Positions 2 through 58,088 of a DNA stretch of 64,000 bases are shown one piece after another. The DNA comes from Candidatus Latescibacterota bacterium. GTDB lineage: Bacteria > Latescibacterota > UBA2968. The stretch is taken from NCBI GenBank assembly GCA_965116885.1, contig OZ220741.1:4288001-4352000 (forward strand), written 5' to 3'. Position numbers and translations under genes: made by a program. Positions within the stretch are counted from its first letter, which is position 1, and every line of letters begins with the position of its first letter. The notes beneath the pieces were generated by a model that was not told the DNA's origin, ran no database searches, and saw only the letters and a list, made by a program, of their open reading frames with translations.

Positions 2-2935
2 TCTGGGCGGTTGCGGGTGATGAAGCAGGATGGGAATGGCAATTCGACAACTGTGGGCTATTTGTATGCGGGCGATCATTTTGGCGAAGGGGCACTGTTG
101 AGTAGGCAGGGGCACCGAGCGACGGTGCGAGCGGTTGAGGATGCGGATGTGTTGCAGGTGCCGAAGGATGAGTTTTTTAAGGCTGTGAGAAAACATTCTG
201 ACGTAAGGGCATATCTTGAGGAGCAGGTCTCCTGTATTGCGTATCGGGATTTTACGCGATTTTTGAAAGGGGATGTTCCGGGCGAAGTGATGCGGGTGTT
301 GTTTGCGCGGTTGAAGCGCGAGGCGGTTGAGGAGGGTGTGGCCGTTGTTGAGCGAGGTCAGTTGGGTCAGCGTTTTTATTTGATTGGCAGCGGTCAGTTG
401 GAGGCTGTGTTAGAAAATGGGGATACGGTGATTCTACGCCCGGGTGATTATTTTGGAGATGGTAGAGATGATGAAACGGTGATTCGCAGTCGGCGTGATA
501 GCGTGCTCTTTTATATAGATAAAAGCGATTTTAATAAGTTAAAAGCTATGATGCCGGGATTTGAGGCGGCGTTGGAGAAAGGTCGCATATCGCGTGGAGA
601 ACAGCGATCGAATGAGTCATTGTTTCAACGAGCGCGGGATGATCGGCAAGCCCTGTCCCCATCGGGGTATCGAGAGACCACACCTGTTGAGCAATCTGTC
701 GCCCAAGAAGACACAGAGGCCAATCCAGCATCCAATGTGGTTAATATCAGAATAGACGGTGAAAAACCACAAGTGCCCACATGGTTTCGCTTTCCGTTTT
801 TGAAGCAGCACGATCAATCGGATTGCGGCGCAGCGTGTTTGGGCATGATTTGTAAGTATTACAAGATGCCTATTGGGTTGAACAGACTGCGCGATATGTC
901 CAATGTGTCGCGGTATGGCACATCGATGGCGGCATTGGCTGAGGCTGCGGAAACCATAGGTTTTGTCACGCGCGGCGTGCGCACGGGATATGAAGCTCTG
1001 ATGCGTACAGAATTGCCGGCCATTCTCCATTGGGAAGGCAATCATTTTGTAGTCTTGTATCAGATAAATAAAAAGGAGGTGAAGATAGCAGATCCCGGCG
1101 TGGGTATTCGCAAGTTGTCGCGGGCAGAGTTTGAGAAGGGCTGGACGAATATGGCGCTTTTGTTGGAATACACAGATCAGGTGGCAGAGAATGAACCGTC
1201 TCAGTCTTCTTTTAAGCGGTTTTTTCCATTGATCAGGCCCTATAGGGGCATTTTGATTGAGGTATTGCTGGCGTCTCTGGTGCTCAGTTTGTTCGGTCTT
1301 GCATCGCCCATTTTTATGCAGACAATTGTCGATCAGGTCTTAGTGCATCACGATGAGGACTTGTTGAATTTGATGCTGGTGGGTATGGTCGTGGTTGCGT
1401 TGTTCCAGATGGGGACATCAACGTTGCGCGTCTATTTGATCGGGTATGTGAGTGCGCGGTTGAGCATTGCGATGTTGTCGCGTTTTTATCAGCATTTATT
1501 GGCACTGTCCATGCGGTTTTTTGCTCTGAGGCGCACGGGCGATTTGACCACGCGGTTTCGGGAGAATGCAACGATTCAGCGTTTGTTGACGGGTGCGACG
1601 GTTTCTGCGGTTCTGGATTTTATCATGCTGTTTGTCTATCTGGGCTTGATGTTTTATTACAATGCCGAACTGACGCTGGTCATGCTGATTTTCGTGCCGC
1701 TATCTGTAGGTCTCACGCTGATTTATACGCCTATTTTGAAGTCTTTCAGCCAGCGCGCTTTTCTGGCACGCGCAGAACAGTCATCGGTCTTGATTGATTC
1801 GCTGCATGGCATTGATGTGGTCAAAGCCTCGGCAGTAGAACGCGCGACACGGTGGCATTGGGAAGGCAAGTTCACAAAGGAGATTCAAATTGGCTTTCAA
1901 CGGTTAAAAATGCAGATGTTGTTTGGGGGGATGGGAAGCGTGATCAATTTGCTCAGCAGTACGGTGATTTTGTGGTATGGTGCCTCATTGGTGATTGCGG
2001 GGGACCTGTCGGTTGGGCAGTTGATGGCGTTTAATGCGCTGATTGGCAATGTGATGGGACCGATTATGGGGTTGATTGGAATATGGCCGCAGGTGCAAGA
2101 AGCGCGTATTGCTCTGGATCGGTTAAATGATGTGTATGATACGCAGATGGAGGATGCGCGGCAACAGGGTCAGGGTTTGATCTTAAAGCATTTGGAAGGG
2201 CGCGTGGTTTTTGAGGGGGTATTTTTCAGATATGGTGTCGGTTCTGATGAACCGTATGTGTTGAATAACATAGACCTGACGCTTGAACCTGGTCAAAAAG
2301 TTGCAGTTGTGGGACGCAGTGGCGCGGGTAAAACCACGTTGGTCAAGCTGGTACCCCGTTTGTTTGATCCGTCAGAAGGGCGCGTGACGCTTGATGGCAT
2401 GGATGTGCGAGATCTGGATCCCCATTGGTTGCGGCGGCAGGTGGGTATGGTGATGCAGGAGCCGTTTTTGTTCTCTGGCACGATTGCAGAAAATATCGCT
2501 ATTGGCCAGTCAGATGCGGACATGGACCGCATTTTGGAAGTGGCAAATCTATCTTGTGTACACGATTTCGTGAGCGATATGCCTTTGGGCTATGAGACAA
2601 AGGTGGGCGAGCAGGGTGTGGGGCTGTCTGGTGGACAACGACAGCGGATTGCAATAGCACGGGCGCTGTATTGTGATCCGAAAATTTTGATTTTTGATGA
2701 GGCGACTAATGCGTTGGATACAGATTCAGAACAGGCGATACAGGCGAATTTAGATCTGTTTTTGGATGCTCGCACGGCGTTGATTATCGCGCATCGGTTG
2801 AGTACGGTGCGGGATGCGGATGCGATTGTGGTCTTAGATAAGGGTCATATTGTGGAGGTGGGCACGCACGATGAGTTGATGGTGCAAGAGGGGTTGTATT
2901 ATCACATGTGCAGTCAACAGCTGCAGGTGGTGTGA
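2..2935 (+). CDS. Peptidase-containing ABC transporter (HlyB/PCAT type) with N-terminal cNMP-binding domains, 5' partial
   Basis: Two cNMP-like segments (GDHFGEGALL; GDYFG), C39 motif QHDQSDCGAACL...HWEGNHFVV, TM domain, Walker A GRSGAGKT, LSGGQRQR, ILIFDEAT. Frame is open to the window edge. Confidence 0.93.
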   Translation, partial: SGRLRVMKQDGNGNSTTVGYLYAGDHFGEGALLSRQGHRATVRAVEDADVLQVPKDEFFKAVRKHSDVRAYLEEQVSCIAYRDFTRFLKGDVPGEVMRVLFARLKREAVEEGVAVVERGQLGQRFYLIGSGQLEAVLENGDTVILRPGDYFGDGRDDETVIRSRRDSVLFYIDKSDFNKLKAMMPGFEAALEKGRISRGEQRSNESLFQRARDDRQALSPSGYRETTPVEQSVAQEDTEANPASNVVNIRIDGEKPQVPTWFRFPFLKQHDQSDCGAACLGMICKYYKMPIGLNRLRDMSNVSRYGTSMAALAEAAETIGFVTRGVRTGYEALMRTELPAILHWEGNHFVVLYQINKKEVKIADPGVGIRKLSRAEFEKGWTNMALLLEYTDQVAENEPSQSSFKRFFPLIRPYRGILIEVLLASLVLSLFGLASPIFMQTIVDQVLVHHDEDLLNLMLVGMVVVALFQMGTSTLRVYLIGYVSARLSIAMLSRFYQHLLALSMRFFALRRTGDLTTRFRENATIQRLLTGATVSAVLDFIMLFVYLGLMFYYNAELTLVMLIFVPLSVGLTLIYTPILKSFSQRAFLARAEQSSVLIDSLHGIDVVKASAVERATRWHWEGKFTKEIQIGFQRLKMQMLFGGMGSVINLLSSTVILWYGASLVIAGDLSVGQLMAFNALIGNVMGPIMGLIGIWPQVQEARIALDRLNDVYDTQMEDARQQGQGLILKHLEGRVVFEGVFFRYGVGSDEPYVLNNIDLTLEPGQKVAVVGRSGAGKTTLVKLVPRLFDPSEGRVTLDGMDVRDLDPHWLRRQVGMVMQEPFLFSGTIAENIAIGQSDADMDRILEVANLSCVHDFVSDMPLGYETKVGEQGVGLSGGQRQRIAIARALYCDPKILIFDEATNALDTDSEQAIQANLDLFLDARTALIIAHRLSTVRDADAIVVLDKGHIVEVGTHDELMVQEGLYYHMCSQQLQVV

Positions 2936-2937
2936 TC

Positions 2938-2976
2938 CGCAGATGAACGCAGATAGACGCAGATGAAAACGCAGAT
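2938..2976. repeat. Short tandem repeat, (CGCAGAT-N3-5) x4
   Basis: cgcagatgaa-cgcagataga-cgcagatgaaaa-cgcagat directly after the ABC transporter stop. Confidence 0.7.
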
Positions 2977-3050
2977 CTGAGGGCTGGTAGGCTGGGTGGT
3001 CATCTCATGTCTCACTTCTAACGTCTTACCGCTTTTAAGGAGTCTGCATC

Positions 3051-4433
3051 ATGGCAGAATCGCTTTTGGAGATATCGACCGAGACAATGTCTCCCGGTGT
3101 AATCCAAGGACAAGATGACGCGGCAGAAGAGGTACAGGCGTTTATGGGGTCTTTGCGGCCCTTTTGGGGGCGCGCATTGCTCTATATTGTCCTGCTATTT
3201 GTGATTGTTGCCATTACCTGGGCGTGGTGGAGTAAGATAGATGTGGTGGCATCAGCACCTTTTCGGTTGGTGCCTCTGGGACAAGTGAAGACGATGCAGG
3301 CACAGCGAGGGGGTGAGATTGAGTTGATTGGTGTGAAAGAAGGGGATCATGTCGAGAAAGGGCAGGTATTGTTCAAGCTGAAATCGTGGGAGACCTGGGG
3401 AGAGTTGCGGGAATGGGAGCAGGCAAAGATGGCTTTTCAAAAGGCAGAGTATGATTTCAAGACGGTGTTGCCACAAAGGGCAAGGTTAAATCGAGAGACG
3501 ATAGGGGCATTGGAACAACGTCTTTCTGTTTTGCAGCAGTTTATGGAGGCACATCAGGATGCGCTGGAAGATTATCACAGTGATGTGGGGGATGGTGTCG
3601 GATCGAAAACCACAACATCTGACGCGGGGTTGCAGGCACAGATTGGATTTCGACAGGCTGAGATTGATCTTATGAAAGGGGAGTTTTTGCAGCAAAAGAC
3701 GCTGTTTGAGCGCGAGTTGATCAGCCGGGTGGATATGAATCGCGCGCGTGTGCAGTATTTAAGTGCTTTATCTGCGCTTCCGTCGCGTATGTCAGAGATA
3801 TACAAGAATGAAATGGCAGTGACTGATCTCAAGCGTCAAATCACAGAGGCGCAAATTGCACACGAGCGCGAGGCATCGCAGATGCGACACACTTATGAGA
3901 CCGCACAATTGCGATTGGAACAGGCGCGCAAACGCATTGATCGCACCCTCGAAGCCGAGTCGGATTTGATTCTGGCACCTGAGTCGGGGATTGTCACACA
4001 GGTGATGGTAAATGCGATGGGACAGGTGATCAGCAAAGGGCAGGCTTTAATCGCGCTGGCACCTGCTTCTGCACCGGTGGTTGCAGAAGTGATGGTGTTG
4101 AATAAAGATGTGGGCTTGCTCAAGCCCGGACAGTTGGTCAAGCTGAAATACGATGCTTATGCCTTTCAGAATTTTGGTATCAAACGCGGGTGGCTTACAT
4201 CCATCTCGCCCGATGCGGTGATTGATGAAAGTGTCGGGACAATATTTAAGTGCGTTGTCGAGTTGGAAGAAAATACGATGCGCGTGAAAGGATATGACAA
4301 GCCTTTGATGTTCGGCATGAAGGGCACGGCGGAGATTATGACCGATCGGCAATCGGTTTTGCTGATGTTGCTTTCTCCTTTGCGACAGCTTTACGAGTCG
4401 GCGAGATACGATGTGCAGGAGGGGGTATTGTGA
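3051..4433 (+). CDS. HlyD-family membrane fusion protein
   Basis: N-terminal TM, VKEGDHVEKGQVL lipoyl-like motif, coiled coil, ILAPESGIV, C-terminal GMKGTAEI; AAGGAG RBS. Confidence 0.93.
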   Translation: MAESLLEISTETMSPGVIQGQDDAAEEVQAFMGSLRPFWGRALLYIVLLFVIVAITWAWWSKIDVVASAPFRLVPLGQVKTMQAQRGGEIELIGVKEGDHVEKGQVLFKLKSWETWGELREWEQAKMAFQKAEYDFKTVLPQRARLNRETIGALEQRLSVLQQFMEAHQDALEDYHSDVGDGVGSKTTTSDAGLQAQIGFRQAEIDLMKGEFLQQKTLFERELISRVDMNRARVQYLSALSALPSRMSEIYKNEMAVTDLKRQITEAQIAHEREASQMRHTYETAQLRLEQARKRIDRTLEAESDLILAPESGIVTQVMVNAMGQVISKGQALIALAPASAPVVAEVMVLNKDVGLLKPGQLVKLKYDAYAFQNFGIKRGWLTSISPDAVIDESVGTIFKCVVELEENTMRVKGYDKPLMFGMKGTAEIMTDRQSVLLMLLSPLRQLYESARYDVQEGVL

Positions 4434-37088: not shown

Positions 37089-38768
37089 ATGCAGACCAAC
37101 TACGACGTCAACATGCAATTAGACGTAAAAGTGCCCATGCGAGACGGCATCAATCTCTCCGCCGATATCTACCTGCCTCGAGCGCGCGGTAAATTCCCCA
37201 CCGTGCTCATGCGGACGCCTTATGACAACAACGCCGACAACATGGTGGAAAAAGCCCGGCGGCTTGCCAACAACGGCTATGCCTGTATTATTCAGGACTG
37301 TCGCGGACGGTGGGACTCAGAAGGGGAATATTACGCCTTTCGGGAAGGCGAAGACGGATACGATACTCAGGAATGGATCGGCAAACAAAAATGGTGCGAT
37401 GGCAAAATCGGAATGGCCGGCAGTTCCTATGGCGGCACAGTCCAGTGGCGCAGCGCACCGTATCGCAGCCAGTATCTCAAATGCATCACACCCCGGGTTA
37501 TATGCACGGACTATTACTCCGGACTCGTCCACCCCGGCGGTGCTTTCCAGCTCAATGTCATGATGACCTGGGGCATGCGCACCAACGCCCGCACCGCGCA
37601 GACCATTGAATTTCACAACTGGACCGAAGCCTTTCGCGCATTGCCCCTCATCGAAATGGACGAACAGGCGGGCCGCAACCTGAATTTCTGGAAAGATTGG
37701 GTAGAACACGCCGCTTACGACGACTATTGGGAGCAATTCAACGACGAAACCAAATGGGGTGAAATCGCCGTCCCCGCGTTCAACATGGGCGGCTGGTACG
37801 ATCTTTACGCGGCACAGACCTTTACCAACTTCAACGGTCTGCGCCTGCACGGTCGCACCGAAGAAGCCAAAAAGAGCAAACTCATCGTCGGCCCCTGGCC
37901 ACATTCCCTCAGCCTATCACCCAAAACCGGTGACATTGACTTCGGCGCACCGTCAATGGTCGATCTGGAAAGCCTTGAACAGCGCTGGTTCGACCACTGG
38001 CTCAAAGGTATTGACAATGGCATCGCAGATGAACCGCCTTTGCGCCTCTTCATCATGGGCATCAACCAGTGGCGCGATGAACATGAATGGCCGCTTGCGA
38101 GAACCCGATGGCAAAAATGGCACCTGCACTCGGGCGGCAGTGCCAATACGCTACTCGGCAACGGCACGCTCTCCACAGCATCACCGGAGAACGAATCGCC
38201 TGATCGCTACACTTACGACCCTCACTACCCCGTCCCGACAATGGGTGGCAACAACTGTTGCTCACCCCACATCGTGCCGTGGGGGCCCTATGACCAGCGT
38301 CCCGTAGAGATGCGTAGCGACGTACTCTGTTACACCAGCGCGCCCCTTAAAACAGCCCTGGAAGTCACGGGTCCCATCAAAGCCGTCATCTACGCCGCTA
38401 CCGACTGCACAGACACGGACTGGACCGCCAAACTCGTCGATGTATCGCCCACCGGGTATGCCATGAACCTCTGTGACGGCATTTTGCGTGCGCGTTTTCG
38501 GGAAAGCCTCACCAACCCCACCTTGCTCAAACCCGACAGCGTCTATGCCTATGAAATTGACCTCGGCGTAACCGGCAACGTCTTCAAAAAGGGCCACCGC
38601 ATCCGCCTCGAAATATCTTCTTCCAATTTTCCCCGGTTCGACCGCAACCTCAATACCGGTGGTTCGCTGGGTCGTGAGACCGAGATGCGCCAGGCGCATC
38701 AGGCCGTCTATCACTCAAAAGCATACCCATCCCACATCACGCTACCCGTCATTCCCTGCGGAGAGTAA
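37089..38768 (+). CDS. CocE/NonD family hydrolase
   Basis: VPMRDG, RTPY, QDCRGR..SEG, GSSYGG nucleophile, GGWYD, GPWPH, SSSNFPRFDRN; CAGGAGG RBS. Confidence 0.93.
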   Translation: MQTNYDVNMQLDVKVPMRDGINLSADIYLPRARGKFPTVLMRTPYDNNADNMVEKARRLANNGYACIIQDCRGRWDSEGEYYAFREGEDGYDTQEWIGKQKWCDGKIGMAGSSYGGTVQWRSAPYRSQYLKCITPRVICTDYYSGLVHPGGAFQLNVMMTWGMRTNARTAQTIEFHNWTEAFRALPLIEMDEQAGRNLNFWKDWVEHAAYDDYWEQFNDETKWGEIAVPAFNMGGWYDLYAAQTFTNFNGLRLHGRTEEAKKSKLIVGPWPHSLSLSPKTGDIDFGAPSMVDLESLEQRWFDHWLKGIDNGIADEPPLRLFIMGINQWRDEHEWPLARTRWQKWHLHSGGSANTLLGNGTLSTASPENESPDRYTYDPHYPVPTMGGNNCCSPHIVPWGPYDQRPVEMRSDVLCYTSAPLKTALEVTGPIKAVIYAATDCTDTDWTAKLVDVSPTGYAMNLCDGILRARFRESLTNPTLLKPDSVYAYEIDLGVTGNVFKKGHRIRLEISSSNFPRFDRNLNTGGSLGRETEMRQAHQAVYHSKAYPSHITLPVIPCGE

Positions 38769-38769
38769 T

Positions 38770-40209
38770 ATGCCAGACTCTCGACCAAATATCCTGCTCA
38801 TCATGACCGACCAGCAACGCGGCGACTGCATAGGTCTCGACCCGTGTAGTCCACCGTGTCTGCAAACACCCAACCTGGACTGGATTGCCCGCACGGGCAC
38901 GCACTTTCACCGCGGATACTCCGAATGCCCCAGTTGTATCCCCGCTCGCCGCTGCCTGATGACCGGCACAGCACCTGCAGCAAATGGCGCTGTCGGATTC
39001 AAAAGTGCCCAGTGGCATCCACCTCACACCCTCGCTGGCGAATTGTCCAGGGCGGGATATCAAACAGAAATGATCGGCAAACTCCACCTATCCCCCGCCC
39101 GCAAGCGCTATGGCTTCGACCACATGCAACTGGCCGACGCCACCCGGGGCAGCCACAACGACTATGTCGAATGGCTACAGCAATACCACAAACGCAACGA
39201 AGTGCATCCCGGCATGGCCCACGGTATTTCCTCCAATGGATGGATCGGTCGCCCACACCACTTGCCCGAAGAACAGATGCACACCTTCTGGTGTATCGAC
39301 AGAGCAATGGACTTTCTCCAAAAACGCGATCCCACGGTTCCGTTTTTTCTCAACATATCCCTTATAGACCCCCATCCCCCGCTTACCCCCCCGGCTCTCT
39401 ATTACGACCGCTATATCCAACGGCGTTTGCCCGATCCCATCATAGGAGACTGGGCATCCGAATTTGACGGTCCTCAAAAAGGTCTCGACCCCAACGCCTG
39501 GCAAATTTGCCTTGACGAACACGACATGCGCTGTTCTCGTGCGGCTTATTACGGCATGATCAACTTTATAGACGACCAGATCGGCCGCCTCATTCAATAT
39601 GCCGGTGGTCTCAACAACTGCCTGACCATCTTCACATCCGACCACGGCGAAATGCTGGGTGACCACAATCTCTTTCGCAAAACCTGGCCATACGAAGCGT
39701 CTGCCCGAATTCCATTTCTCATGCGCGCGCCTAAAAACTGGGGGTACCCCGAAGAAATCACTTGCAAAAGCCCCGTCGGCATCCAGGACATTATGCCCAC
39801 TATCCTCGATGCGGCCGACATCGATATCCCCGAGACCTGCACGGGCAAAAGCCTCCTGCCCGTCATGCAAGGCGACACTGATCGCGTGCGGGAATTTCTA
39901 CATGGAGAACACGCTGGCTGTTATAACTACAACCACGGCAACCACTATGTCACAGATGGACACCACAAATACATCTGGTATTCTCAAACGGGTGAAGAAC
40001 ACCTTTTCAACCTGGACGAAGATCCCCATGAAATGCGCGACATTACGCGCAATCCCAACTCTGAAATACAACCCTGGCGAAATCGCCTCATCGAATTCCT
40101 CAAAGACCGTCCAGAAGGTTTTACCGATGGCACGCATTTGATCCCCGGCCAGCCCCACGAAGAACTCCTGCCAGGCTATGACCCCGAAGCGACCTACCCG
40201 TATTTGTGA
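38770..40209 (+). CDS. Formylglycine-dependent sulfatase
   Basis: RPNILLIMTDQQR, CIPAR (CxPxR), GKLH, DPHPP, FTSDHGEMLGDH. Start is ATG 38770. Confidence 0.93.
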   Translation: MPDSRPNILLIMTDQQRGDCIGLDPCSPPCLQTPNLDWIARTGTHFHRGYSECPSCIPARRCLMTGTAPAANGAVGFKSAQWHPPHTLAGELSRAGYQTEMIGKLHLSPARKRYGFDHMQLADATRGSHNDYVEWLQQYHKRNEVHPGMAHGISSNGWIGRPHHLPEEQMHTFWCIDRAMDFLQKRDPTVPFFLNISLIDPHPPLTPPALYYDRYIQRRLPDPIIGDWASEFDGPQKGLDPNAWQICLDEHDMRCSRAAYYGMINFIDDQIGRLIQYAGGLNNCLTIFTSDHGEMLGDHNLFRKTWPYEASARIPFLMRAPKNWGYPEEITCKSPVGIQDIMPTILDAADIDIPETCTGKSLLPVMQGDTDRVREFLHGEHAGCYNYNHGNHYVTDGHHKYIWYSQTGEEHLFNLDEDPHEMRDITRNPNSEIQPWRNRLIEFLKDRPEGFTDGTHLIPGQPHEELLPGYDPEATYPYL

Positions 40210-43455: not shown

Positions 43456-43487
43456 ATTTTCCACCAAAACTTGATTTGTCTGGGGTT

Positions 43488-43511
43488 ATTATGTACATTT
43501 CTGTACATAAT
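43488..43511. promoter_or_regulatory. Putative Phd/YefM antitoxin operator
   Basis: Inverted repeat ATTATGTACA-TTTC-TGTACATAAT with two TGTACA hexads. Confidence 0.7.
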
Positions 43512-43526
43512 TGTAAAGGAGGACAA

Positions 43527-43760
43527 ATGAAAACTGTGACTTTCACTGAATTTCGTCAGCATGCGGCGGCGTGTTTAAATGCCGTTGAACAGGGTGAGAC
43601 GTTTCGTATCTTGCGACACGGCAAGCCCGTCGCTGATTTAACACCTATAAAAACAGACAACTCTGTGCCTTCCTGGAAACGGTGTATTGAACCAATCAGG
43701 CTAAAAGGTATTTCTGTTTCAGATATGATAATAAAAGAAAGAGATGAGTACGGACGATGA
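43527..43760 (+). CDS. Phd/YefM-family antitoxin
   Basis: MKTVTFTEFRQH....L..VEQGETFRILRHGKPVA.L.P; AGGAGG RBS. Confidence 0.9.
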   Translation: MKTVTFTEFRQHAAACLNAVEQGETFRILRHGKPVADLTPIKTDNSVPSWKRCIEPIRLKGISVSDMIIKERDEYGR

Positions 43761-44179
43761 ATGCTTTTTTTGATTCTTCTGCCCTTGTCAAAAGATATGT
43801 TGAAGAAGATGGACGAGAAAGAGTTATCAATATCTTTGAAGAGGCAAGTGCTATAGGGGTAAGTGTTATCTGTTTTCCCGAGGTTATTTCGGCATTTTGC
43901 AGGTTACAGCGAGAAGGGAATTTGGACAAGCCTCAATATGAGCGAATTAAAGGCGATATGATTGCAGATTTTGAAGACTTCTTTATTTCTGCGATTACCC
44001 CACAAGTAAGAGGGTGTGTTACACGTCTTTTAGAAACATATTCTTTGCGCGCTATGGATGCACTGCACCTCGGAAGTGCTATTGAATGGCAAGCCGATAC
44101 CTTTGTTTCGGGAGACAAGCGTCAGATTATTGCAGCTCAAAATGAAGGATTAGATGTACTTGATATCCAGGATGAATAA
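43757..44179 (+). CDS. vapC: VapC (PIN domain) toxin
   Basis: FFDSSALVKRYVEE, LRAMDALHL.SA, FVSGD; ATGA overlap with the antitoxin. Confidence 0.9.
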   Translation: MNAFFDSSALVKRYVEEDGRERVINIFEEASAIGVSVICFPEVISAFCRLQREGNLDKPQYERIKGDMIADFEDFFISAITPQVRGCVTRLLETYSLRAMDALHLGSAIEWQADTFVSGDKRQIIAAQNEGLDVLDIQDE

Positions 44180-44260
44180 GGTTTTTTCCCTCTTTTTTTG
44201 ACTTTGCTTTATTTTTATTTTTTAAGTCACTATTTACCGAGACCCAACAGGAGGCAAGCA

Positions 44261-44830
44261 ATGGACGTTTTGGAAGCCATTCACACGCGGCGCACAATTT
44301 TTAAGTTCAAACCAGGTGGTGTGCCCAAAGATGTAATCGAAAAAATTTTTGAAGCCGGTCTGTGGGCGCCCAATCACCATTTGACAGAACCGTGGCGGTT
44401 TGTAGTCCTGGGAGAAGAAACCAAAGAAATACTGGCGCAACGCTACAGCGAAATTCAGGAGGCAAAAGCGGCTGAAGGTGCCAGCGACGAGGCCAGGCGC
44501 ATATTAAAAGATGCCGGTTATGACAAGTTCATGTCAAAGCCCACAATTATTGCGGTGGCGTGTTTGCAAGATGGCGATGACATCAAGAACAGAGAAGATT
44601 ATGCGGCTGCGTGTTGCGCCATGCAAAATGTACAGTTGGCTGCCTGGGCAGAAGGGGTTGGCATGCAGTGGAGCACGGGGCCGATCACGCTGGAAGAAAA
44701 CACCTACAAATTGCTGGGTGTAGATACCGGGAACGAATACATCATCGGATTTTTCTATACCGGATATCCCGATGAAATTCCAGAACCGAGGCGCAAGCCC
44801 CTCGAAGAAGTACTGAGCTGGACGGATTGA
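44261..44830 (+). CDS. Nitroreductase family protein
   Basis: MDVLEAIHTRRTI..F, WAPNHHLTEPWRF, AMQNVQLAA.AEG.G; CAGGAGG RBS. Confidence 0.9.
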   Translation: MDVLEAIHTRRTIFKFKPGGVPKDVIEKIFEAGLWAPNHHLTEPWRFVVLGEETKEILAQRYSEIQEAKAAEGASDEARRILKDAGYDKFMSKPTIIAVACLQDGDDIKNREDYAAACCAMQNVQLAAWAEGVGMQWSTGPITLEENTYKLLGVDTGNEYIIGFFYTGYPDEIPEPRRKPLEEVLSWTD

Positions 44831-45654
44831 TTCCGCTAACCATGAATGGCTTTGAATTTTTTATCCTCTATCGCCTGCCCTATTTTGCATTGCCTTTCTA
44901 TCTTATCATGCTTGGCGTGCGAATATGGGTGTGGATGCGGTTTTACAACCCCGCGCTCAAGCTATTGCCACGCGCCAGAGGATCTGTATATGGCGTGTGG
45001 AAGCAGCAGTACCGCCCAACCATTCACATTTTTCCCGGATCGCGCTCACAAAGCACAGAATGGAAGCGTGCGATAAAAGGCTTTGTTTTTTTTATTGGTC
45101 TCTATAAGCGCGACAAAATACTGTGGCTGGGCTCCTGGTCCCTCCATTTGGGGCTGCTCCTAGTAATTGTTGCCCATGTCCGCGTGATTTTGCCGCTTGA
45201 CCTGGACCCAATCTGTTTGCGCATCGCATTGATCGGCAGTGGATTGATGGCAGTGTCGGGCACTTATTTATTGCTGCGTCGGATAATCGTTCAACGCGTG
45301 CGAGAAATTACAGACTTTCGGGACTATCTCGCGGAATTCATCCTCCTGTTTTTTTCTGCGACAGCATTTCTCGTGATGTTAGACGGTGGCGTGTCATCCG
45401 AAGCCCTGCGCCACTATGTATCTGGGCTGTTGATGAACACAGTGGAAGTTATTGAAGTGCCACACATTTTTGTCTGGCACATGCTCGCCGCCCAGCTCTT
45501 ATTGATGGTGATCCCATTTTCCCATCTGTTGCATCTGGGCGGGATTTTTTTCAGTCGCGAATTTCTGGGCACATCCGATACATTTGCGGGGGAATTTGGA
45601 TCGGGATTTTCAGGATTAAAGGATGAGCAGGATGAAAAGATGAAAAACTCGTAG
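44827..45654 (+). CDS. dsrM: DsrM/NarI-like di-heme cytochrome b membrane subunit
   Basis: Multi-TM with His pairs SLHLGLLLVIVAHVR and VWHM...IPFSHLLH, plus LLRR...VREIT..DY. Alternative start ATG 44842. Confidence 0.8.
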   Translation: MIPLTMNGFEFFILYRLPYFALPFYLIMLGVRIWVWMRFYNPALKLLPRARGSVYGVWKQQYRPTIHIFPGSRSQSTEWKRAIKGFVFFIGLYKRDKILWLGSWSLHLGLLLVIVAHVRVILPLDLDPICLRIALIGSGLMAVSGTYLLLRRIIVQRVREITDFRDYLAEFILLFFSATAFLVMLDGGVSSEALRHYVSGLLMNTVEVIEVPHIFVWHMLAAQLLLMVIPFSHLLHLGGIFFSREFLGTSDTFAGEFGSGFSGLKDEQDEKMKNS

Positions 45655-45711
45655 GGGCGGTGCGTGAACGGGTCTGGACAGCGCCCCGTTGTACACCGCT
45701 CGTGCCCGCCC
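45651..45711. repeat. REP-like (GTAG-type) palindromic element
   Basis: GTAGGGGCG...CGCCCC stem between the dsrM-like and dsrK-like genes. Confidence 0.4.
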
Positions 45712-45729
45712 ATCGCAGGGATTGAACGA

Positions 45730-47064
45730 ATGGAACGAGAAAAAAAATACATTCCATCGGGCCTGGCTGGCACGTATATGCGGCGCATTGCCGAATCGGA
45801 TCCGTTTGTCCGCGAGATCCAGGATGAACCGTCGGCATTGCGTTTGTACATGGATACGTGTACCAAATGTGGGGTGTGTGCGCAGGAATGCCCGGTGTAT
45901 TACGGGCAGCCCGATAAGCGTATGCATCCGGTGGAACGCTCTCGGCAAGTGATTCGTTTATACAAAAAATATACGACATTTTGGGGGCGATTTTGGAACG
46001 CCATTTTTCCAAAGCCAGATTTTGAAGATAATGATGCCGAGTTGTTTGCCGAGCGCATGTACGAGTGTTTGACGTGTCGGCGGTGTGCGGCATTTTGTCC
46101 TGTGGGAATCGATCATTCGGTGATCTCGCGCGTTGGACGCTCACTTGTCGATTTAATGGGTTTGACGCCGCCATCCCTTGCTCAGGGTACGCACAATTCG
46201 TTTGAAACAGGCAATTTGGAAGGTGCGTCAGCCGAGGCATTTTTAGACGCGATTCAATTTATCGAAGAAGAGCTCAAAGAAGAAACGGGACGAGATATTG
46301 CCATTCCCTTAGACCGCGAAGGCGCGGAAATTTTCTTTTTGCCACCATCGGGTGATGTGCTGGTTTATGCTGAAAACTTAATGGGTATGGCAAAAATTTT
46401 TCACGCCATCGGTGCCGATTGGACGATGAGCTCGCGGGCATTTGACGGATCGAATTTCGGATTTACGACCGGCAATAATTTTTCAATGAAGTACGAGAAC
46501 AAACACTACATCGACGCATGCGAAAAATTGGGATGTAAGATCATGGTAATGGGTGAATGCGGACATGCGTATCGGGTGATGAAGTTCATGGCCAGCGAAG
46601 GACGCTGGTGGGGTGCATTGCCTTTTGAGATTACCAGTGGGTTTGAATATACGGCACAACTTATTCGCACGGGCAAACTGAAATTGGATCCTGGCAAAAA
46701 TCCCGATCCCGTGACCTATCACGACGCTTGCCAATTTGCTGCCGGGTGCGGGATTGTTGAGGAACCCAGAGAGATTTTGAAAGCGGCCTGTGTCGATTAC
46801 CGCGAAATGCCCGATGGTGGGTACACGCAGTGGTGTTGCGGTGGTGGCGGCGGGTTATCGGCACTCCGCTCGGTGCGCGCGTTTCGAATGGAGGTCTCGG
46901 GCAAAAAGAAAGCAGAGCAAATGCGCGAGACCGATGCGGAGATCGTATCGACCTCGTGTTTGCAGTGCCGCACACAACTCAAAGAAATCGCGCGCCATCA
47001 CAAAATGCCACTAAAAATTACAGGTGTACACGAGTTGATCAACAATGCGATTGTACTGGAATAG
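45730..47064 (+). CDS. dsrK: DsrK/HdrD-like Fe-S oxidoreductase with CCG domain
   Basis: CTKCGVCAQEC, CLTCRRCAAFCP.GID, GECGHA, TYHDAC, WCCGGGGG, SCLQC. Start uncertain (45664, 45730 or 45778). Confidence 0.82.
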   Translation: MEREKKYIPSGLAGTYMRRIAESDPFVREIQDEPSALRLYMDTCTKCGVCAQECPVYYGQPDKRMHPVERSRQVIRLYKKYTTFWGRFWNAIFPKPDFEDNDAELFAERMYECLTCRRCAAFCPVGIDHSVISRVGRSLVDLMGLTPPSLAQGTHNSFETGNLEGASAEAFLDAIQFIEEELKEETGRDIAIPLDREGAEIFFLPPSGDVLVYAENLMGMAKIFHAIGADWTMSSRAFDGSNFGFTTGNNFSMKYENKHYIDACEKLGCKIMVMGECGHAYRVMKFMASEGRWWGALPFEITSGFEYTAQLIRTGKLKLDPGKNPDPVTYHDACQFAAGCGIVEEPREILKAACVDYREMPDGGYTQWCCGGGGGLSALRSVRAFRMEVSGKKKAEQMRETDAEIVSTSCLQCRTQLKEIARHHKMPLKITGVHELINNAIVLE

Positions 47065-47074
47065 CCTATAGCTC

Positions 47075-48292
47075 ATGTCTGATTTAATTTACATGGACAA
47101 CGCGGCGACGACGTTTCCAAAGCCCCCCAGTGTGCTGGAAGACGCGCTGGCATTTTATCGAAAATACGGGGTAAATCCCGGGCGCAGTGGCACGGATCTG
47201 GCGCGCGAGGCCGAGGCTATGGTCGCCGAAGCGCGTACATCACTCGCGTCGTTTTTTGGAGCCACGGGCAGTCCCGACCGGCTTGTGTTTACACACAATG
47301 CCTCGGATGCGTTGAATATTGCGATTCAGGGCACGTTGAAATCCGGCGATCACGTAATTACAACTTGTCTGGATCACAATTCGGTTTTGCGCCCGATATA
47401 CCATCTCTCAAAATATGAGGGAATTGAGGCGACTTATGTGGGCTTTGGGACAGATGGCTTTATCGACCCGGAGGATATTGATAGGGCGATCAGGCCAAAC
47501 ACAAAACTCGTCGTGATGACCCATGCATCCAATGTACTGGGCACTGTGCAACCCGTAGCAGCCGTCGGCGCAATCTGCCGCGCAAGCGGTGTAATTTTTT
47601 GCGTTGATGTGGCGCAAACAGCGGGCATGTTGCCCATTGATATGGAGGCAATGCAGGCCGACATTTTGTGTTTTACCGGACACAAGTCACTCATGGGACC
47701 AACGGGGACTGGTGGGATGTACGTGCGCGACGGGGTGACAATTGCACCGTTGCGATACGGCGGAACGGGTGTGCGATCGGAGTATCCCGATCACCTAAGC
47801 GAGTATCCCTGGCGATTGGAGTGTGGCACGGGCAACCTGATGGGTATTGCGGGGCTGTTATACGCGCAAAAATGGATGCAACGCAAAGGCATAGAAAATA
47901 TTCACGCACGCGAGATGGCTTTGTTCAAACAACTGGTCAATGGCCTGCGCGAAGTCGATGGGACCATTTTGTATTGCGCTGAAAATTTTGATCAACACGT
48001 ACCTGTATTGTCAGCCAATATCGAAGGGATGACTGCAAACAATGTGGGTACATTGCTGGATGTGAAGTTCAATGTGGCAACGCGTACGGGATTGCAATGC
48101 GCGCCAAAGGTACATGAAACTCTGGGTACGAAAGCGATGAAGGGTACGGTACGTATTTCATTGGGACCCTTTAATACCGAAGCACAAATTGAAACTGTGA
48201 TCGAGGGCTTGAGCGATATTTCCCAACGGCACGGACGACGCGATGTACAATTGCACCAGCAGGTAAAAGGTCAGGTGCGGAATGGCGTATGA
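47075..48292 (+). CDS. Class V PLP cysteine desulfurase/selenocysteine lyase family protein
   Basis: IYMDNAATTFPKP, VNPGRSG, HNSVLRP, THASNV.G, DVAQTAG, FTGHKSLMGP, catalytic RTGLQCAP. Confidence 0.92.
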   Translation: MSDLIYMDNAATTFPKPPSVLEDALAFYRKYGVNPGRSGTDLAREAEAMVAEARTSLASFFGATGSPDRLVFTHNASDALNIAIQGTLKSGDHVITTCLDHNSVLRPIYHLSKYEGIEATYVGFGTDGFIDPEDIDRAIRPNTKLVVMTHASNVLGTVQPVAAVGAICRASGVIFCVDVAQTAGMLPIDMEAMQADILCFTGHKSLMGPTGTGGMYVRDGVTIAPLRYGGTGVRSEYPDHLSEYPWRLECGTGNLMGIAGLLYAQKWMQRKGIENIHAREMALFKQLVNGLREVDGTILYCAENFDQHVPVLSANIEGMTANNVGTLLDVKFNVATRTGLQCAPKVHETLGTKAMKGTVRISLGPFNTEAQIETVIEGLSDISQRHGRRDVQLHQQVKGQVRNGV

Positions 48293-48605
48293 AATTGTGA
48301 CGCTGGGCGGCAAAGAAATTGAGGTAGATGAAGATGGATTTATCCAACAGCCCGAGCTTTGGGACGAAGATGTAGCGCGCGATCTGGCCCGACAAGATGG
48401 TATTGAAGAGATGAGTGAAGATCACTGGCAGGTCGTGTATTATATCCGCAATTATTGGTTGAAATTTGAAATCGCCCCATTGATCCGCCGCCTTTGTAAA
48501 GAGACGGAGAAAGATATCGATACAATTTACGACCTGTTTTCTGCTGGTCCCGCAGATGGCGCGTGTAAAATCGCAGGTCTGCCGACGCCTACGGGTTGTA
48601 CGTGA
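48282..48605 (+). CDS. dsrC: DsrC/TusE sulfur carrier with both C-terminal cysteines
   Basis: VDEDGFI, W.E..A..LA, HWQVVYYIR, LF..GPA.GACKIAGLPTPTGCT (C-X10-C). Confidence 0.92.
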   Translation: MAYEIVTLGGKEIEVDEDGFIQQPELWDEDVARDLARQDGIEEMSEDHWQVVYYIRNYWLKFEIAPLIRRLCKETEKDIDTIYDLFSAGPADGACKIAGLPTPTGCT

Positions 48606-48644
48606 TCATTAAACAAAAAAATAAGACAAAAAATGAGGCCCAAA

Positions 48645-48911
48645 ATGTCGTCTATAAAGATTGAATGTCCCGCCCACATTCTGGATGCCCTAAAAGAAAC
48701 TCCTGATGAATTTGCACGGGAAGCACGGATACTCTTGGCAGCAAAGCTATATGAAATTGGTCGCTTATCCTCAGGGAGAGCCGCGGAACTCGCAGGCTTG
48801 GGTAGAGTAGCTTTTTTTGATATGTTGAAGTCTTACAAAGTGCCTGTCGCAAATTTAACCCGTGAAGAGTTAAAAAAGGACTTTGAGAGTGCCAGGAAGA
48901 TGCGTGGTTGA
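48645..48911 (+). CDS. UPF0175-family putative antitoxin
   Basis: LAAKLYEIGRLSSGRAAELAGLGRVAF.D.L..Y.VP. Confidence 0.85.
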   Translation: MSSIKIECPAHILDALKETPDEFAREARILLAAKLYEIGRLSSGRAAELAGLGRVAFFDMLKSYKVPVANLTREELKKDFESARKMRG

Positions 48912-48934
48912 TGCAGACGATTTTTAGGCCGATA

Positions 48935-48968
48935 AAAATAGCGACCTCATTAATGAGGTCGCTATTTT
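48935..48968. terminator. Perfect 34-bp palindrome, bidirectional terminator
   Basis: AAAATAGCGACCTCATTAATGAGGTCGCTATTTT between convergent genes. Confidence 0.75.
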
Positions 48969-48993
48969 ATTTTTTAAAATTTTTACATATGAA

Positions 48994-49893
48994 CTATTGC
49001 CCTGTACGCGCTTGAATATTCGACATATCTTCAATAATCGTGAGCAAACCCGAGTGGTCGAGTTCGCCGCGGCCTTTGACCATTGCGGTCTTAAAAAGCT
49101 CAAAAACCTCACTGGTAACGGGCAGGGGCACGTCGAAATCATTGCTCGTTTTCTGGATGATATTGAGGTCTTTGTAGTGCAGGCGAATGCGAAAGCCGGG
49201 ATCAAAATCGCCATTGACCATGCGCTCACCCCTGTTTTCAAGTACACCGCAGCGAGCGAGGCCCCCGCTGAGCACCTGAACGATTTTGATTGGATCAACG
49301 CCCGCTTTGGTACCCATTGTGAGGGCTTCTGATACACCGGCAATCGTGACGGCAACGAGGATTTGATTGCACGCTTTCACGGTTTGCCCTGCGCCGAGAG
49401 GCCCACACAAAATCGCACTTTGGCCCATAACGTCAAAGAGCGGTTTGACCGTGTTGAACGTGTCTTCATCGCCGCCAACCATAATCGAAAGGGTCGCGTT
49501 TTGGGCACCGATATCACCGCCGCTAACGGGTGCATCGAGACTTTGGACGCCTTTTTCCGCGAGCACCTCCCCCACCCTTGTGGTGACACTGGGCGCAATC
49601 GTGCTCATATCGACGAAAACCAGCCCCTCGTGCGCGCCTTCAAGAATACCCCCTTCGCCCAAAGCGACACTCTCGACATCGGGTGAATCGGGCAACATAG
49701 TGATAACGATATCGCTTTGCTCAGCCACCTCTTTGCCAGAATGCGCTTCTGCTGCCCCTTTACCCACGAGTTCATCGACCGCATCTCGATTGCGGTTGTG
49801 TACAACGAGTTCATATCCAGCATCTATCAAATGACCGGCCATCGGTTTGCCCATGATCCCGAGACCGATAAACCCAATTTTTGGCTTCGACAT
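48994..49893 (-). CDS. garR: 2-hydroxy-3-oxopropionate (tartronate semialdehyde) reductase family
   Basis: IGFIGLGIMGKPMA, MLPDSPDV, DAPVSGG, GAGQTVKACNQ, PGFRIRLHYKDL. Confidence 0.88.
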   Translation of the reverse strand: MSKPKIGFIGLGIMGKPMAGHLIDAGYELVVHNRNRDAVDELVGKGAAEAHSGKEVAEQSDIVITMLPDSPDVESVALGEGGILEGAHEGLVFVDMSTIAPSVTTRVGEVLAEKGVQSLDAPVSGGDIGAQNATLSIMVGGDEDTFNTVKPLFDVMGQSAILCGPLGAGQTVKACNQILVAVTIAGVSEALTMGTKAGVDPIKIVQVLSGGLARCGVLENRGERMVNGDFDPGFRIRLHYKDLNIIQKTSNDFDVPLPVTSEVFELFKTAMVKGRGELDHSGLLTIIEDMSNIQARTGQ

Positions 49894-55394: not shown

Positions 55395-58088
55395 CTATTT
55401 CATCTCAAAATCACCCGAACCAATCACACGTTGTTCCACGCCCTCATCTCGAATGGACACAAACGCCGATGTCCGAATCTGAAACTGCACTGTGCCCTCA
55501 ATCTCTCGAAGCGGAAAAAAGCAATGCGCCATTCCCGTATTTGTGACGCGAAAACCGGGATCGTCTTCGAGAATGACGTGCTCACCCACCACGCGTTGAA
55601 CGCGCAACCCGCGCGTTGTACCATCGCCAAATGTCACAACAGCAACAGCGCCATCTATGTCATCCATTTCAGGCAGGCCATTCACGACCAATGCATGGTA
55701 CGGCGCACCATCCTCTATTCGCAATACATCTGTAACCTGCCCCGTATAGATACCACCACCTGTTAACCGAGTGGTTTGCCATTGCACCTTCTCCCCACCC
55801 CATAACCCCAGAACTCGCGCCTCCCCATCCTGTTCGCGCACAAAACCGACTTCGCCTTGAAATGTAAGATCGCCCATGCGAAAAACTTCTGTCCCGGATT
55901 GCAGAACAATATGATCCGTACTCCCCCGGTGGCGCACTTTCAGGTACACGCCGCGCTCGCCAATATCTTCCACCTCGACAGAATCGATAAACGCCTTATC
56001 CCGAAACGGCTCGTGAACAGCCATGAACCGACTCGGCGATCGACCTTTTTGTCGAACCATCAACATGGGCATGCGAAATTGATCGAGTAGCGGTTCGTCT
56101 TCGTCTGCACGCCGCACAGAGGGCGCGTCCCCCACAAAAAGTTTGCTATCCGCCAACCCCACAAGATGAATACGCACGGCAACAGCATCTCCGTGAAAAG
56201 TGACACGCGCATCCTGTACATGATCGCTATATGACACATTTTGAAAAAATGCAAGCGCGACATTTCGTCCTTCTGCATCCCCCTGGTCGCGTTCGTGTTC
56301 TGGGAACCGCACCTTCACACCCGGTAGCAGATTTTCACCATAGTGCTGCAAAAGCACATTGGTCTCTGTCCGCATATCGACATCCGCGCTTCCGTGCATC
56401 ACCCAATCGCGCTGATCGCCGCCCTGCACGCGAAACAGATCGACCACATAGTGATCCTCTCCCCCCACATTTACGAGCATGACCAACCGCCGATATTCTT
56501 CCGCCAGTCCGGGATACACATCTTCCCCACTCGCTTCTACCCATTGCACCGGGTCATAAGCGGCTTCAAATGCCAGCAGAGAACCATCTATAATACCCTT
56601 TCTATTGGAGCGTTCTTGTTCCCCTTCATCAATTAACACAGTATTGTGGCACAAGGTGCTCGTTGCCCAGCTTCGATATCGGGTATGGGTATAGCCCACA
56701 TCGGAGAGCAGTTCCTGTCCCTTAGCAAAAAGCATCAGATTCAAATTGTCCGCATGGGCATGCCCATAAGCCCCCGAAAAGTGCAGATGCACCTGCATTT
56801 GATGTTCGCCCTTTCCTCTCCCCAACCACGCATGTCCAATACCGGACAGCAGTGTCGGATGCGACTGTTCAAGCGGTCTGACATTGGGACCAACCCGTCG
56901 GCTATCCAACCGCGCCCAGGCATCGTGCATGGGAATCCATCGCCCATCTGGATATCTGCAAATATCCAGAAGCTGATTTGCCTTTCTCACAATGGCAATA
57001 TCTCGCTCTAAATCCAGTTCGTCGTATCGCACGCCATCGTCCGACACATAATCCAACGGATCGGAATACCCGTTCAGCGCGTCAAATACCACTTGCATAC
57101 CCGCCATTGTCATCCGGTGATACCCCAAACTGCCTTCATGCCAGAAGCCATCCGCATAAAATTGACGCTCAAACAGACCGATACTGCGTCGAATGGCTTC
57201 GTGAACGAGTTCTGGATCATTTAGCACGCGGCCAATCACCGCATACCCGACGTAAATCCGAGGGCTCGCATTGCCATAAGTGATCTCGTGAAAACCTTCC
57301 TGGCGAATGGCTCCGCGAAAAAAATCGTCCTCAATCCGCTTTTTCACATCTATCCCAATCGCATCGGACAATCGCTCCAATTCGCCACTTGTATAAATCG
57401 CATCGTAAGCCAGAGCCAGATTAGTCGGCATTTCATCTGCGCGCCACCGCCCCCATTTTCCTCCAAAATTTGGATAGGGTGGTTCAAGCACAAATCCCTT
57501 TTGTTCGTGTGCTCGATCATAACTCACCAGAAAACCCGGATAATACCGCGCGAATGCGTCCAGAATCAGCACCGCGCGTCGCGCATACGTCGCATCTCCC
57601 GTTGCCTGGTATAACTGCCCCAAATCTTCCGCAATCGCCGCAAAATACACGCGCGCTTCCCGCCACGCCTTTGCCCGAAAGTAATACCGAAATCCCGTCT
57701 CATCTTCCCAAAAGGGATATGTCACCGCATCACCTACCGGGTTTACAACTGTCTGTATCTGATTATCCGGATATCTCTCATTGGGAAACACCATCTCGCA
57801 ATAGCGACACTGTACGCGCTGTGGATCTTTAATTGACCATCGCAACTGCCCTTCCTGAGCACCAGCATCACAATCGGGACATCCCACAAATCGAAACCCC
57901 GTCTTATCGGGGATCAACGCCACCATCTCTGCTTCAGAAAGTGCCATCACCACTCGCACGCGCCGCTTCATACGCGCGACTTCCTTCTCGGTTAAGCTCA
58001 CCTGATAAACCGGGCGTTCAATGGCTTGCATAGCCAACACTCCTGTGAGAATTTGTATGGTAATTAAAAGAATTATACGTATTGACAT
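55395..58088 (-). CDS. Heparinase II/III-like polysaccharide lyase family protein
   Basis: DGFWHEGSLGYH, GHAHADNLNL.LFA.G..LLSDVGY, TLCHNTVLID. Alternative start 58031 after AGGAG. Confidence 0.8.
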   Translation of the reverse strand: MSIRIILLITIQILTGVLAMQAIERPVYQVSLTEKEVARMKRRVRVVMALSEAEMVALIPDKTGFRFVGCPDCDAGAQEGQLRWSIKDPQRVQCRYCEMVFPNERYPDNQIQTVVNPVGDAVTYPFWEDETGFRYYFRAKAWREARVYFAAIAEDLGQLYQATGDATYARRAVLILDAFARYYPGFLVSYDRAHEQKGFVLEPPYPNFGGKWGRWRADEMPTNLALAYDAIYTSGELERLSDAIGIDVKKRIEDDFFRGAIRQEGFHEITYGNASPRIYVGYAVIGRVLNDPELVHEAIRRSIGLFERQFYADGFWHEGSLGYHRMTMAGMQVVFDALNGYSDPLDYVSDDGVRYDELDLERDIAIVRKANQLLDICRYPDGRWIPMHDAWARLDSRRVGPNVRPLEQSHPTLLSGIGHAWLGRGKGEHQMQVHLHFSGAYGHAHADNLNLMLFAKGQELLSDVGYTHTRYRSWATSTLCHNTVLIDEGEQERSNRKGIIDGSLLAFEAAYDPVQWVEASGEDVYPGLAEEYRRLVMLVNVGGEDHYVVDLFRVQGGDQRDWVMHGSADVDMRTETNVLLQHYGENLLPGVKVRFPEHERDQGDAEGRNVALAFFQNVSYSDHVQDARVTFHGDAVAVRIHLVGLADSKLFVGDAPSVRRADEDEPLLDQFRMPMLMVRQKGRSPSRFMAVHEPFRDKAFIDSVEVEDIGERGVYLKVRHRGSTDHIVLQSGTEVFRMGDLTFQGEVGFVREQDGEARVLGLWGGEKVQWQTTRLTGGGIYTGQVTDVLRIEDGAPYHALVVNGLPEMDDIDGAVAVVTFGDGTTRGLRVQRVVGEHVILEDDPGFRVTNTGMAHCFFPLREIEGTVQFQIRTSAFVSIRDEGVEQRVIGSGDFEMK

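Follow-up and report, generated by a model that had tools for sequence, protein, structure and literature searches.

A DsrMK-like reductase, a cysteine desulfurase and DsrC encoded together without dissimilatory sulfite reductase in a Latescibacterota bacterium

DsrC and the membrane complex DsrMK are usually taken as parts, and as markers, of DsrAB-dependent sulfite reduction or sulfur oxidation. The operon analysed here encodes relatives of both together with a pyridoxal phosphate (PLP)-dependent cysteine desulfurase (CSD), and lies in a 64,000-nucleotide stretch of DNA (hereafter the window) from a Candidatus Latescibacterota bacterium, which is sponge-associated. The window corresponds to positions 4288001-4352000 of a single-contig closed genome (OZ220741.1) of 5.56 Mb that is 98.4% complete. 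A sequence-only reading had suggested that the desulfurase might replace DsrAB in loading sulfur onto DsrC. The present analysis puts at about one half the probability that the core of the operon forms a sulfur relay without dissimilatory sulfite reductase, in which menaquinol re-reduces DsrC and sulfide is released.

Among described systems, the DsrC-DsrMK pair of sulfite and sulfate reducers shares with the operon a two-cysteine DsrC with a canonical arm, a di-haem NarI-type membrane subunit and a cytoplasmic subunit with two [4Fe-4S] motifs and a CCG domain, for which DsrK is the best model. It differs in that here no DsrAB is available to make a DsrC trisulfide, the DsrK- and DsrM-like proteins score below the family cut-offs, a desulfurase gene lies between dsrK and dsrC, and DsrK falls outside the canonical clade encoded beside dsrA. 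In HdrDE of methanogens, a b-type cytochrome anchor and a CCG subunit reduce a disulfide with a membrane quinone-like carrier. The operon likewise encodes a cytochrome b anchor and a CCG subunit, and DsrC would be the protein-bound "heterodisulfide". However, Hdr is not the best model here, the substrate would be a protein, and the quinone would be menaquinone. The SufS-SufE and CsdA-CsdE pairs are similar in that the PLP enzyme is nearer to SufS and CsdA than to IscS, has the PLP lysine and catalytic cysteine (Lys204 and Cys342), and is encoded next to a small cysteine-bearing partner that is predicted to dock at the dimer interface by the catalytic loop. In contrast to those pairs, the partner has the DsrC fold rather than that of SufE, CsdE or SufU, and is tied to a quinol-linked reductase and not to Fe-S assembly.

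Complex forms consisting of DsrMK only are known (PMC10504309), and the same paper makes no mention of desulfurase, latescibacter, bacteroid or ignavibacter terms. A literature search, mostly at the level of abstracts, retrieved no paper linking DsrC or DsrMK to a cysteine desulfurase, or describing them in Latescibacteria.

The operon and its conserved core

Pfam models were used to scan 53 open reading frames (ORFs) in the window, and NCBIfam models were applied to the operon proteins. Family models agree with the five co-oriented genes described by the sequence-only reading, all on the forward strand. The features of the gene string, in window coordinates, are as follows.

44261-44830, + strand: nitroreductase-family FMN protein (PF00881, 97.6 bits; GGAGG 6 nt before the ATG)
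44827-45654, + strand: DsrM-like, NarI-type membrane cytochrome b (PF02665, 43.5 bits)
45664-47064, + strand: DsrK-like iron-sulfur protein (Fer4_8 and CCG domains; NF045796, 312.7 bits)
47075-48292, + strand: PLP cysteine desulfurase of the TIGR01977 family (PF00266, 299.9 bits; TIGR01977, 422.8 bits)
48282-48605, + strand: DsrC with two C-terminal cysteines (PF04358, 114.2 bits; TIGR03342, 109.5 bits)
48935-48968, + strand: terminator-like hairpin with a 15-bp stem followed by a T run (consensus match only), closing the gene string

The nitroreductase and dsrM genes overlap by 4 nt, and the remaining gaps are 9-10 nt except at the desulfurase/DsrC junction, where the 11-nt overlap noted earlier (48282-48292) is present. 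A scan for sigma-70 promoters returned five sites, compared with a mean of 8.5 in shuffled sequence, and none was usable upstream of the operon.

The gene order proposed for a synteny check proved to be conserved among related genomes. DsrM, DsrK, CSD and DsrC follow one another in 24 of 26 related loci, with DsrK identity ranging from 98% to 74%; in the other two, the contig breaks off within dsrK. Within the GTDB family, 28 of the 30 other genomes, from five of the six genera, carry the window-type DsrK, compared with none of the 138 genomes of the rest of the phylum. The conserved core is thus made up of the DsrM-like protein, the DsrK-like protein, the desulfurase and DsrC. In one relative, a GT4 glycosyltransferase gene stands between dsrM and dsrK (L032:4745-5914), so these two genes need not be contiguous.

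The sequence-only reading had also found no dsrAB, dsrJOP or dsrEFH/tusBCD in the window, and had asked for a genome-wide search; both the observation and the outcome of that search agree with its proposal. Profile searches of the closed genome returned neither dsrA nor dsrB above cut-off. The only match to these models, far below cut-off, is a 742-residue protein, which is the sole NIR_SIR protein of the genome and a NirA-type assimilatory enzyme. Similarly, there was no genome-wide match to the DsrE family (PF02635, which covers TusBCD/DsrE). A search for further Dsr genes including dsrJOP, which covered the window, found none among the 53 ORFs. Of these ORFs, 40 outside the operon and its surroundings are housekeeping genes, are unrelated or have no family match, and none is a Dsr gene. 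The wider taxon is comparable: within the GTDB family, all 30 other genomes lack dsrA, and one of 168 genomes of the GTDB phylum has it. DsrC proper works with DsrAB encoded in the same genome, a partner that the window DsrC lacks.

DsrC itself is a clear member of its family. It has 107 residues and both C-terminal cysteines, as previously described, in the arrangement C95-X10-C106-T, with CysA penultimate; its C-terminal end is GACKIAGLPTPTGCT. Cys95 and Cys106 are invariant across 20 aligned DsrC sequences. The family scores given above compare with cut-offs of 24.9 bits (PF04358) and 53.5 bits (TIGR03342), and the protein is the only DsrC in the whole genome. According to the DiSCo paper (PMC8477390), the motif AGLPKPTG before CysA separates DsrC from TusE and RspA; the window protein has AGLPTPTG-C, with one difference, as many as are allowed. 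Against solved structures, DsrC scores best with 1ji8 (112.5 bits), followed by 1sau, 2xsj_C and 2v4j_C. Solved DsrC structures give 79-112 bits, versus 36 bits for 7syb_A (deposited as "Sulfurtransferase"). DsrC proteins of sulfite and sulfate reducers score 90-112 bits, versus 78.8 bits for the Allochromatium protein.

The desulfurase exceeds the cut-off of its family (377 bits for TIGR01977). The SufS and CsdA models outscore the IscS models, with 253 bits for the SufS subfamily and 156 bits for IscS. The PLP-binding Lys204 (in FTGHK) and the catalytic Cys342 (in TGLQCAP) are invariant in 17 sequences. The enzyme is proposed to be the sulfur donor to DsrC; the genome holds three or four further class-V desulfurase paralogues.

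The sequence-only reading had left room for selenium in place of sulfur. The desulfurase would then be a selenocysteine lyase, DsrC would carry selenium, and selenophosphate synthetase would receive the selenide formed from it by DsrMK. The family nearest to the selenocysteine lyase SclA is TIGR01977, and the SclA model (NF040779) gives 331 bits, but its cut-off is 525 bits. The genome does contain selD (genome positions 607704-608627, L097), with one in-frame TGA as in most selD genes of the phylum, so its product is probably itself a selenoprotein. However, this gene is 3.7 Mb from the operon. Its occurrence does not follow that of the operon either: 133 of 168 genomes of the phylum have it, among them members of operon-free families (22/22 in f2 and 71/76 in f4), and it was not found in one genome that carries the operon and is 98% complete. 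No specific support for the selenium option was therefore obtained, and it is considered quite improbable.

The DsrMK-like subunits carry the expected cofactor residues. In the DsrM-like protein, an alignment of 34 sequences shows His107, His117, His218 and His236 to be invariant, all four within hydrophobic segments, and their spacings of 10 and 18 match those of the NarI haem ligands; this subunit would form the quinol side of the module. Its score against NF038037 is 44.3 bits, compared with a cut-off of 300. The DsrK-like protein contains two CxxCxxCxxxCP ferredoxin-type motifs and one CCG domain, and Cys66/69/72/76, Cys135/138/141/145, Cys356, Cys391/392 and Cys432/435 are invariant. The CCG domain is the probable DsrC-reducing site. 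The best NCBIfam model for this protein is DsrK (NF045796), although the score is below the cut-off of 400 bits. The true start of the protein is probably the ATG at 45730, since its relatives align only from residue 17-25.

Phylogenetic analysis places this DsrK apart from the canonical one. In a quick tree of 68 sequences, the window clade (support 100) is sister to a family of about 50% identity, with joint support of 97, and is separate from the clade of canonical and archaeal DsrK (support 100). The sampling comprised 22 random members of the approximately 50%-identity family and 8 of 24 full-length related DsrK (from loci L006-L025, L027 and L032-L034); loci L185-L189 were excluded as duplicates. 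The DsrK phylogeny suggested as a check hence shows that the window protein is not in the clade encoded beside dsrAB. Therefore, the window DsrMK is a paralogue of the canonical complex. The earlier identification stands as to DsrM- and DsrK-like proteins with their cofactor residues, and does not stand as to canonical DsrMK.

The sister family differs from the window operon in the genes around it. Its members are the nearest DsrK relatives outside the window family, and come from Gemmatimonadota, Planctomycetota, Zixibacteria, Elusimicrobiota, Myxococcota and others. In 57 such loci (L035-L091; for instance L069:2224-7293 and L081:4839-8036) the order is DsrC-like, DsrM, DsrK, with the upstream DsrC-like gene present in 44, and a desulfurase gene in none of the 57. 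In the DsrC-like protein of these loci, tyrosine replaces CysB, with L079 as the sole exception. The same protein carries an extra cysteine in an FPCG motif, and a fused double-DsrC protein of about 215 residues, without the terminal cysteine arm, is often encoded near the cluster. Five genomes that carry this paralogue each also have a canonical DsrK (530-736 bits with NF045796), which lies a few kb from dsrA in three of the five; dsrA is above cut-off in four of the five.

A sister relationship to a family found in dsrAB-carrying genomes would fit a decaying remnant of a lost Dsr pathway with no present function. Yet the reading frames are intact, and the catalytic residues are invariant across five genera and down to 74% DsrK identity. 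Additionally, dsrK and dsrC are separated by an inserted desulfurase gene, other phyla show the same pairing, and the operon is present in RNA libraries (both described below). The remnant explanation was rejected on the conservation and the intact residues, and is very improbable.

The desulfurase-DsrC pairing in other phyla

Desulfurases of the same subfamily are encoded beside DsrC well outside the Latescibacterota. Among 51 loci with a desulfurase 49-56% identical to that of the window, a two-cysteine DsrC, a CCG reductase or both are adjacent in 21, and both are present in 16. The hosts of the 49-56% loci belong to Bacteroidota, Ignavibacteriota, Acidobacteriota, Aminicenantes, Zixibacteria, Chitinivibrionales and Krumholzibacteria. 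As a rule, DsrC comes first, followed by a 214-residue membrane protein, the CCG protein and the desulfurase; both cysteines of DsrC are retained throughout, the protein ending PKP[D/E]GCV. In one Acidobacteriota metagenome-assembled genome, the DsrC gene beside the desulfurase (L121:6178-6498) has a stop at codon 23, which is not a cysteine position and may reflect a sequencing error or a pseudogene; this sequence was left out of DsrC alignment A3.

More distant desulfurases lack this context. In 29 loci with a desulfurase 39-44% identical to that of the window, mostly from Bacillota, no DsrK-like gene was found (0/29), and one weak DsrC-like gene with a single cysteine was present. A desulfurase tree of 88 sequences splits a Bacillota-type clade of 27 from a clade of 61 with support of 100. 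Inside the latter, a group of 58 contains the family of the window together with all 21 DsrC-linked enzymes.

The operons of Bacteroidota, Ignavibacteriota, Acidobacteriota and Aminicenantes resemble that of the window in the desulfurase subfamily, the two-cysteine DsrC, and the presence of a membrane anchor and a CCG protein. Similarly, dsrA was found in none of five genomes carrying them, although the completeness of these genomes is unknown. They differ in gene order, with DsrC first and then anchor, CCG protein and desulfurase, compared with DsrM, DsrK, desulfurase and DsrC in the window. They also differ in the end of DsrC, which is PKPDGCV there and PTPTGCT here; the host here is, on its gene content, an aerobe. 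Furthermore, the reductase is of a different type. The CCG protein of a Bacteroidales locus (L107) matches TmcB (295 bits) and HmcF (294 bits) better than DsrK (250 bits), and the best models for its membrane anchor are HmcE and TmcC. In the 68-sequence tree, the CCG reductases of the other phyla form a clade separate from the window DsrK. Forcing them into monophyly with the window clade was rejected (p-AU 5.7e-30, for a group that was named after the tree had been seen). This approximately unbiased (AU) test did not include loci L100, L122 and L128, where the DsrK-like genes fall in other paralogue groups. The pairing of the desulfurase with a two-cysteine DsrC is thus kept while the reductase differs. 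Among the genomic arguments for a connection between the three functions, this one is the strongest.

A structural model of the desulfurase dimer with DsrC supports binding between the two. The predicted complex scored 0.68 (0.69, 0.68 and 0.65 in separate runs), compared with 0.11 for the best of three controls. Of 157 solved complexes, 116 reach the mark applied, as do 2 of 215 mismatched pairs; these counts hold only roughly here, since the alignments for both proteins were made for this analysis and the job had three chains. Contacts agree between the runs to at least 78%, and the partner has a pLDDT of at least 86. On the desulfurase side, the predicted interface comprises residues 320-331 and 385-386 from one protomer and residues 37-44 from the second; on the DsrC side, it comprises residues 64-92, directly ahead of the cysteine arm. 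It would flank the Cys342 loop, and the arm bearing Cys95 and Cys106 would leave from the interface. To our knowledge there is no solved desulfurase-DsrC complex, and a memorised structure is therefore an unlikely cause of this result. The link between desulfurase and DsrC that the sequence-only reading proposed has thereby gained independent support from the recurrent gene neighbourhood and from a complex model that passes its controls.

In metatranscriptomic libraries of three studies, labelled sponge metagenome or metagenome, contigs cover each of the five genes and run across the four junctions between them. Positions 45822-46015 are without contig cover in three of four runs, from which nothing is concluded. 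Since such libraries can contain DNA, the contigs are a mere hint of expression.

A candidate route from cysteine to sulfide and its competitors

The relay considered here would proceed in four steps, modelled, like the direction of electron flow, on the known chemistry of the protein families. The desulfurase would take sulfur from L-cysteine, leaving alanine and a persulfide on Cys342. It would then dock DsrC and pass the sulfur to Cys106 on the flexible C-terminal arm. Cys95 would resolve this persulfide, setting sulfide free and yielding an oxidised DsrC that has either a disulfide or sulfur-bridged cysteines. Finally, the CCG cluster of the DsrK-like protein would re-reduce DsrC with electrons that menaquinol supplies and the two haems b of the DsrM-like protein pass on. 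The net reaction would be cysteine + menaquinol -> alanine + sulfide + menaquinone. Such a cycle would provide a quinol-linked sink for cysteine sulfur, and might contribute to the proton gradient, as NarI-type anchors do.

Several observations weigh against this relay. Menaquinol, at about -74 mV, is a weak donor for persulfides and disulfides at about -150 to -270 mV, and electrons would have to move uphill; the module may hence require coupling or work in the opposite direction. It is also not obvious why an aerobic host should require a further electron sink. Both the DsrK-like and the DsrM-like proteins fall below the NCBIfam Dsr cut-offs, and 26 of the 58 desulfurases of the main group have neither DsrC nor a CCG reductase within 5 kb. 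In addition, the score of the predicted complex is the model's own confidence and not a measurement, and RNA-library contigs cannot prove transcription.

With a weak donor and an aerobic host, the oxidative direction remains a real rival. The desulfurase would again load DsrC, with sulfane sulfur, but DsrMK would oxidise it to the trisulfide and pass the electrons to menaquinone and then to oxygen, and the oxidised sulfur would leave by a further route. By the potentials given above, electron transfer from a thiol or persulfide to menaquinone is downhill. The gene content indicates an organism that respires oxygen: a haem-copper oxidase (COX1, 477.7 bits) and 2-oxoglutarate dehydrogenase are encoded, while cytochrome bd was looked for in the genome and not found. 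DsrMK(JOP) is described in the oxidative role for sulfur oxidisers in the introduction of PMC8477390. However, no rDsrAB, DsrEFH or DsrL was found that could consume the trisulfide, and the window DsrC scores higher with the proteins of reducers than with that of Allochromatium, as noted above. The oxidative explanation is regarded as unlikely.

DsrC could instead act in a biosynthetic or protective thiol relay, delivering sulfur in the manner of TusE or buffering persulfides, with DsrMK keeping it reduced. DsrC does belong to the TusE/DsrC family (TIGR03342), and desulfurases of the SufS/CsdA type normally use a dedicated acceptor. On the other hand, the TusE model (NF008562) gives 76.1 bits, well under its cut-off of 191, and no TusBCD/DsrE family protein is encoded in the genome. 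A membrane quinol-linked reductase has been kept with the pair in two lineages, which is more than a carrier needs, and the other class-V desulfurases are available for housekeeping. A thiol relay is likewise regarded as unlikely.

The quinol-driven relay to sulfide thus remains the preferred reading. The claim of a sulfite-reductase-independent module is borne out with respect to the lack of dsrAB, the conserved gene order and the non-canonical DsrK, and needs correcting with respect to a canonical DsrMK and to the membership of the nitroreductase and of the menaquinone genes discussed below. A further-reaching version, in which desulfurase, DsrC and CCG reductase form an energy-conserving terminal reductase for a "cysteine-sulfane respiration", with cysteine sulfur accepting the electrons of menaquinol, and were assembled at least twice from two reductase lineages (DsrK-like here, TmcB/HmcF-like in other phyla), is put forward tentatively and is rather doubtful at present.

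Together with the related operons of other phyla, this one suggests that no sulfite reductase is needed for DsrC to receive sulfur straight from cysteine and to be recycled at the membrane. If so, organic sulfur would have a new path to sulfide, and respiration perhaps a new electron sink. Matches to dsrC and dsrMK in metagenomes would also have to be read differently, and the desulfurase and DsrC would make a simple two-protein system for the study of DsrC persulfide and trisulfide chemistry in vitro. If the respiratory version holds, the partnership of DsrC with a CCG reductase would be a free-standing unit that is independent of DsrAB and occurs also in aerobic animal symbionts.

Neighbouring genes

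The nitroreductase, taken by the sequence-only reading as part of the operon, is not a constant member of it. Of 26 related loci, 18 have it no more than 350 nt from dsrM, four have it 1.2-3.1 kb upstream, and the remaining four do not have it in the locus; in L021, it is separated from dsrM by genes for a chemotaxis receptor and a PhyH protein. A second copy, with 96% nucleotide identity over 605 nt, is located at genome positions 2582052-2582656 (L192:5060-5629, minus strand). It adjoins FMN_bind and PepSY_TM genes, a context unrelated to the Dsr-like operon, and suggests a recent duplication or gene conversion. Given the inconstant position or presence and the second copy elsewhere, the nitroreductase was rejected as a core member; in the genus of the host, it heads the operon as an accessory or incidental gene.

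A functional link to menaquinone synthesis had been drawn from mqnB and mqnD. MqnD (PF02621) and the futalosine hydrolase MqnB (TIGR03664, 214.5 bits, cut-off 124.7) are indeed encoded 2.3 kb downstream, but on the opposite strand. They are next to the operon only in closer relatives and were not found in loci L032-L034, and were therefore set aside as local neighbours.

Immediately around the operon, a Phd/YefM-PIN toxin-antitoxin pair lies upstream (43476-44179) and a UPF0175 gene downstream (48633-48911). The presence of both varies among near-identical relatives. RNA-library contigs of other strains skip 43769-44224 and 48613-49001 and join straight across. The pair and the UPF0175 gene look like mobile insertions flanking the operon.

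Further out, a sulfatase and a heparinase II/III-like protein (38659-40209 and 55395-58088) flank the operon region, which fits a lifestyle of degrading sulfated polysaccharides. At the start of the window (11-4433), an ABC exporter with two cyclic-nucleotide-binding domains and a C39 peptidase domain is followed by an HlyD-type protein. This pair represents bacteriocin-type secretion, in which the cyclic nucleotide monophosphate (cNMP)-sensing N-terminus is unusual.

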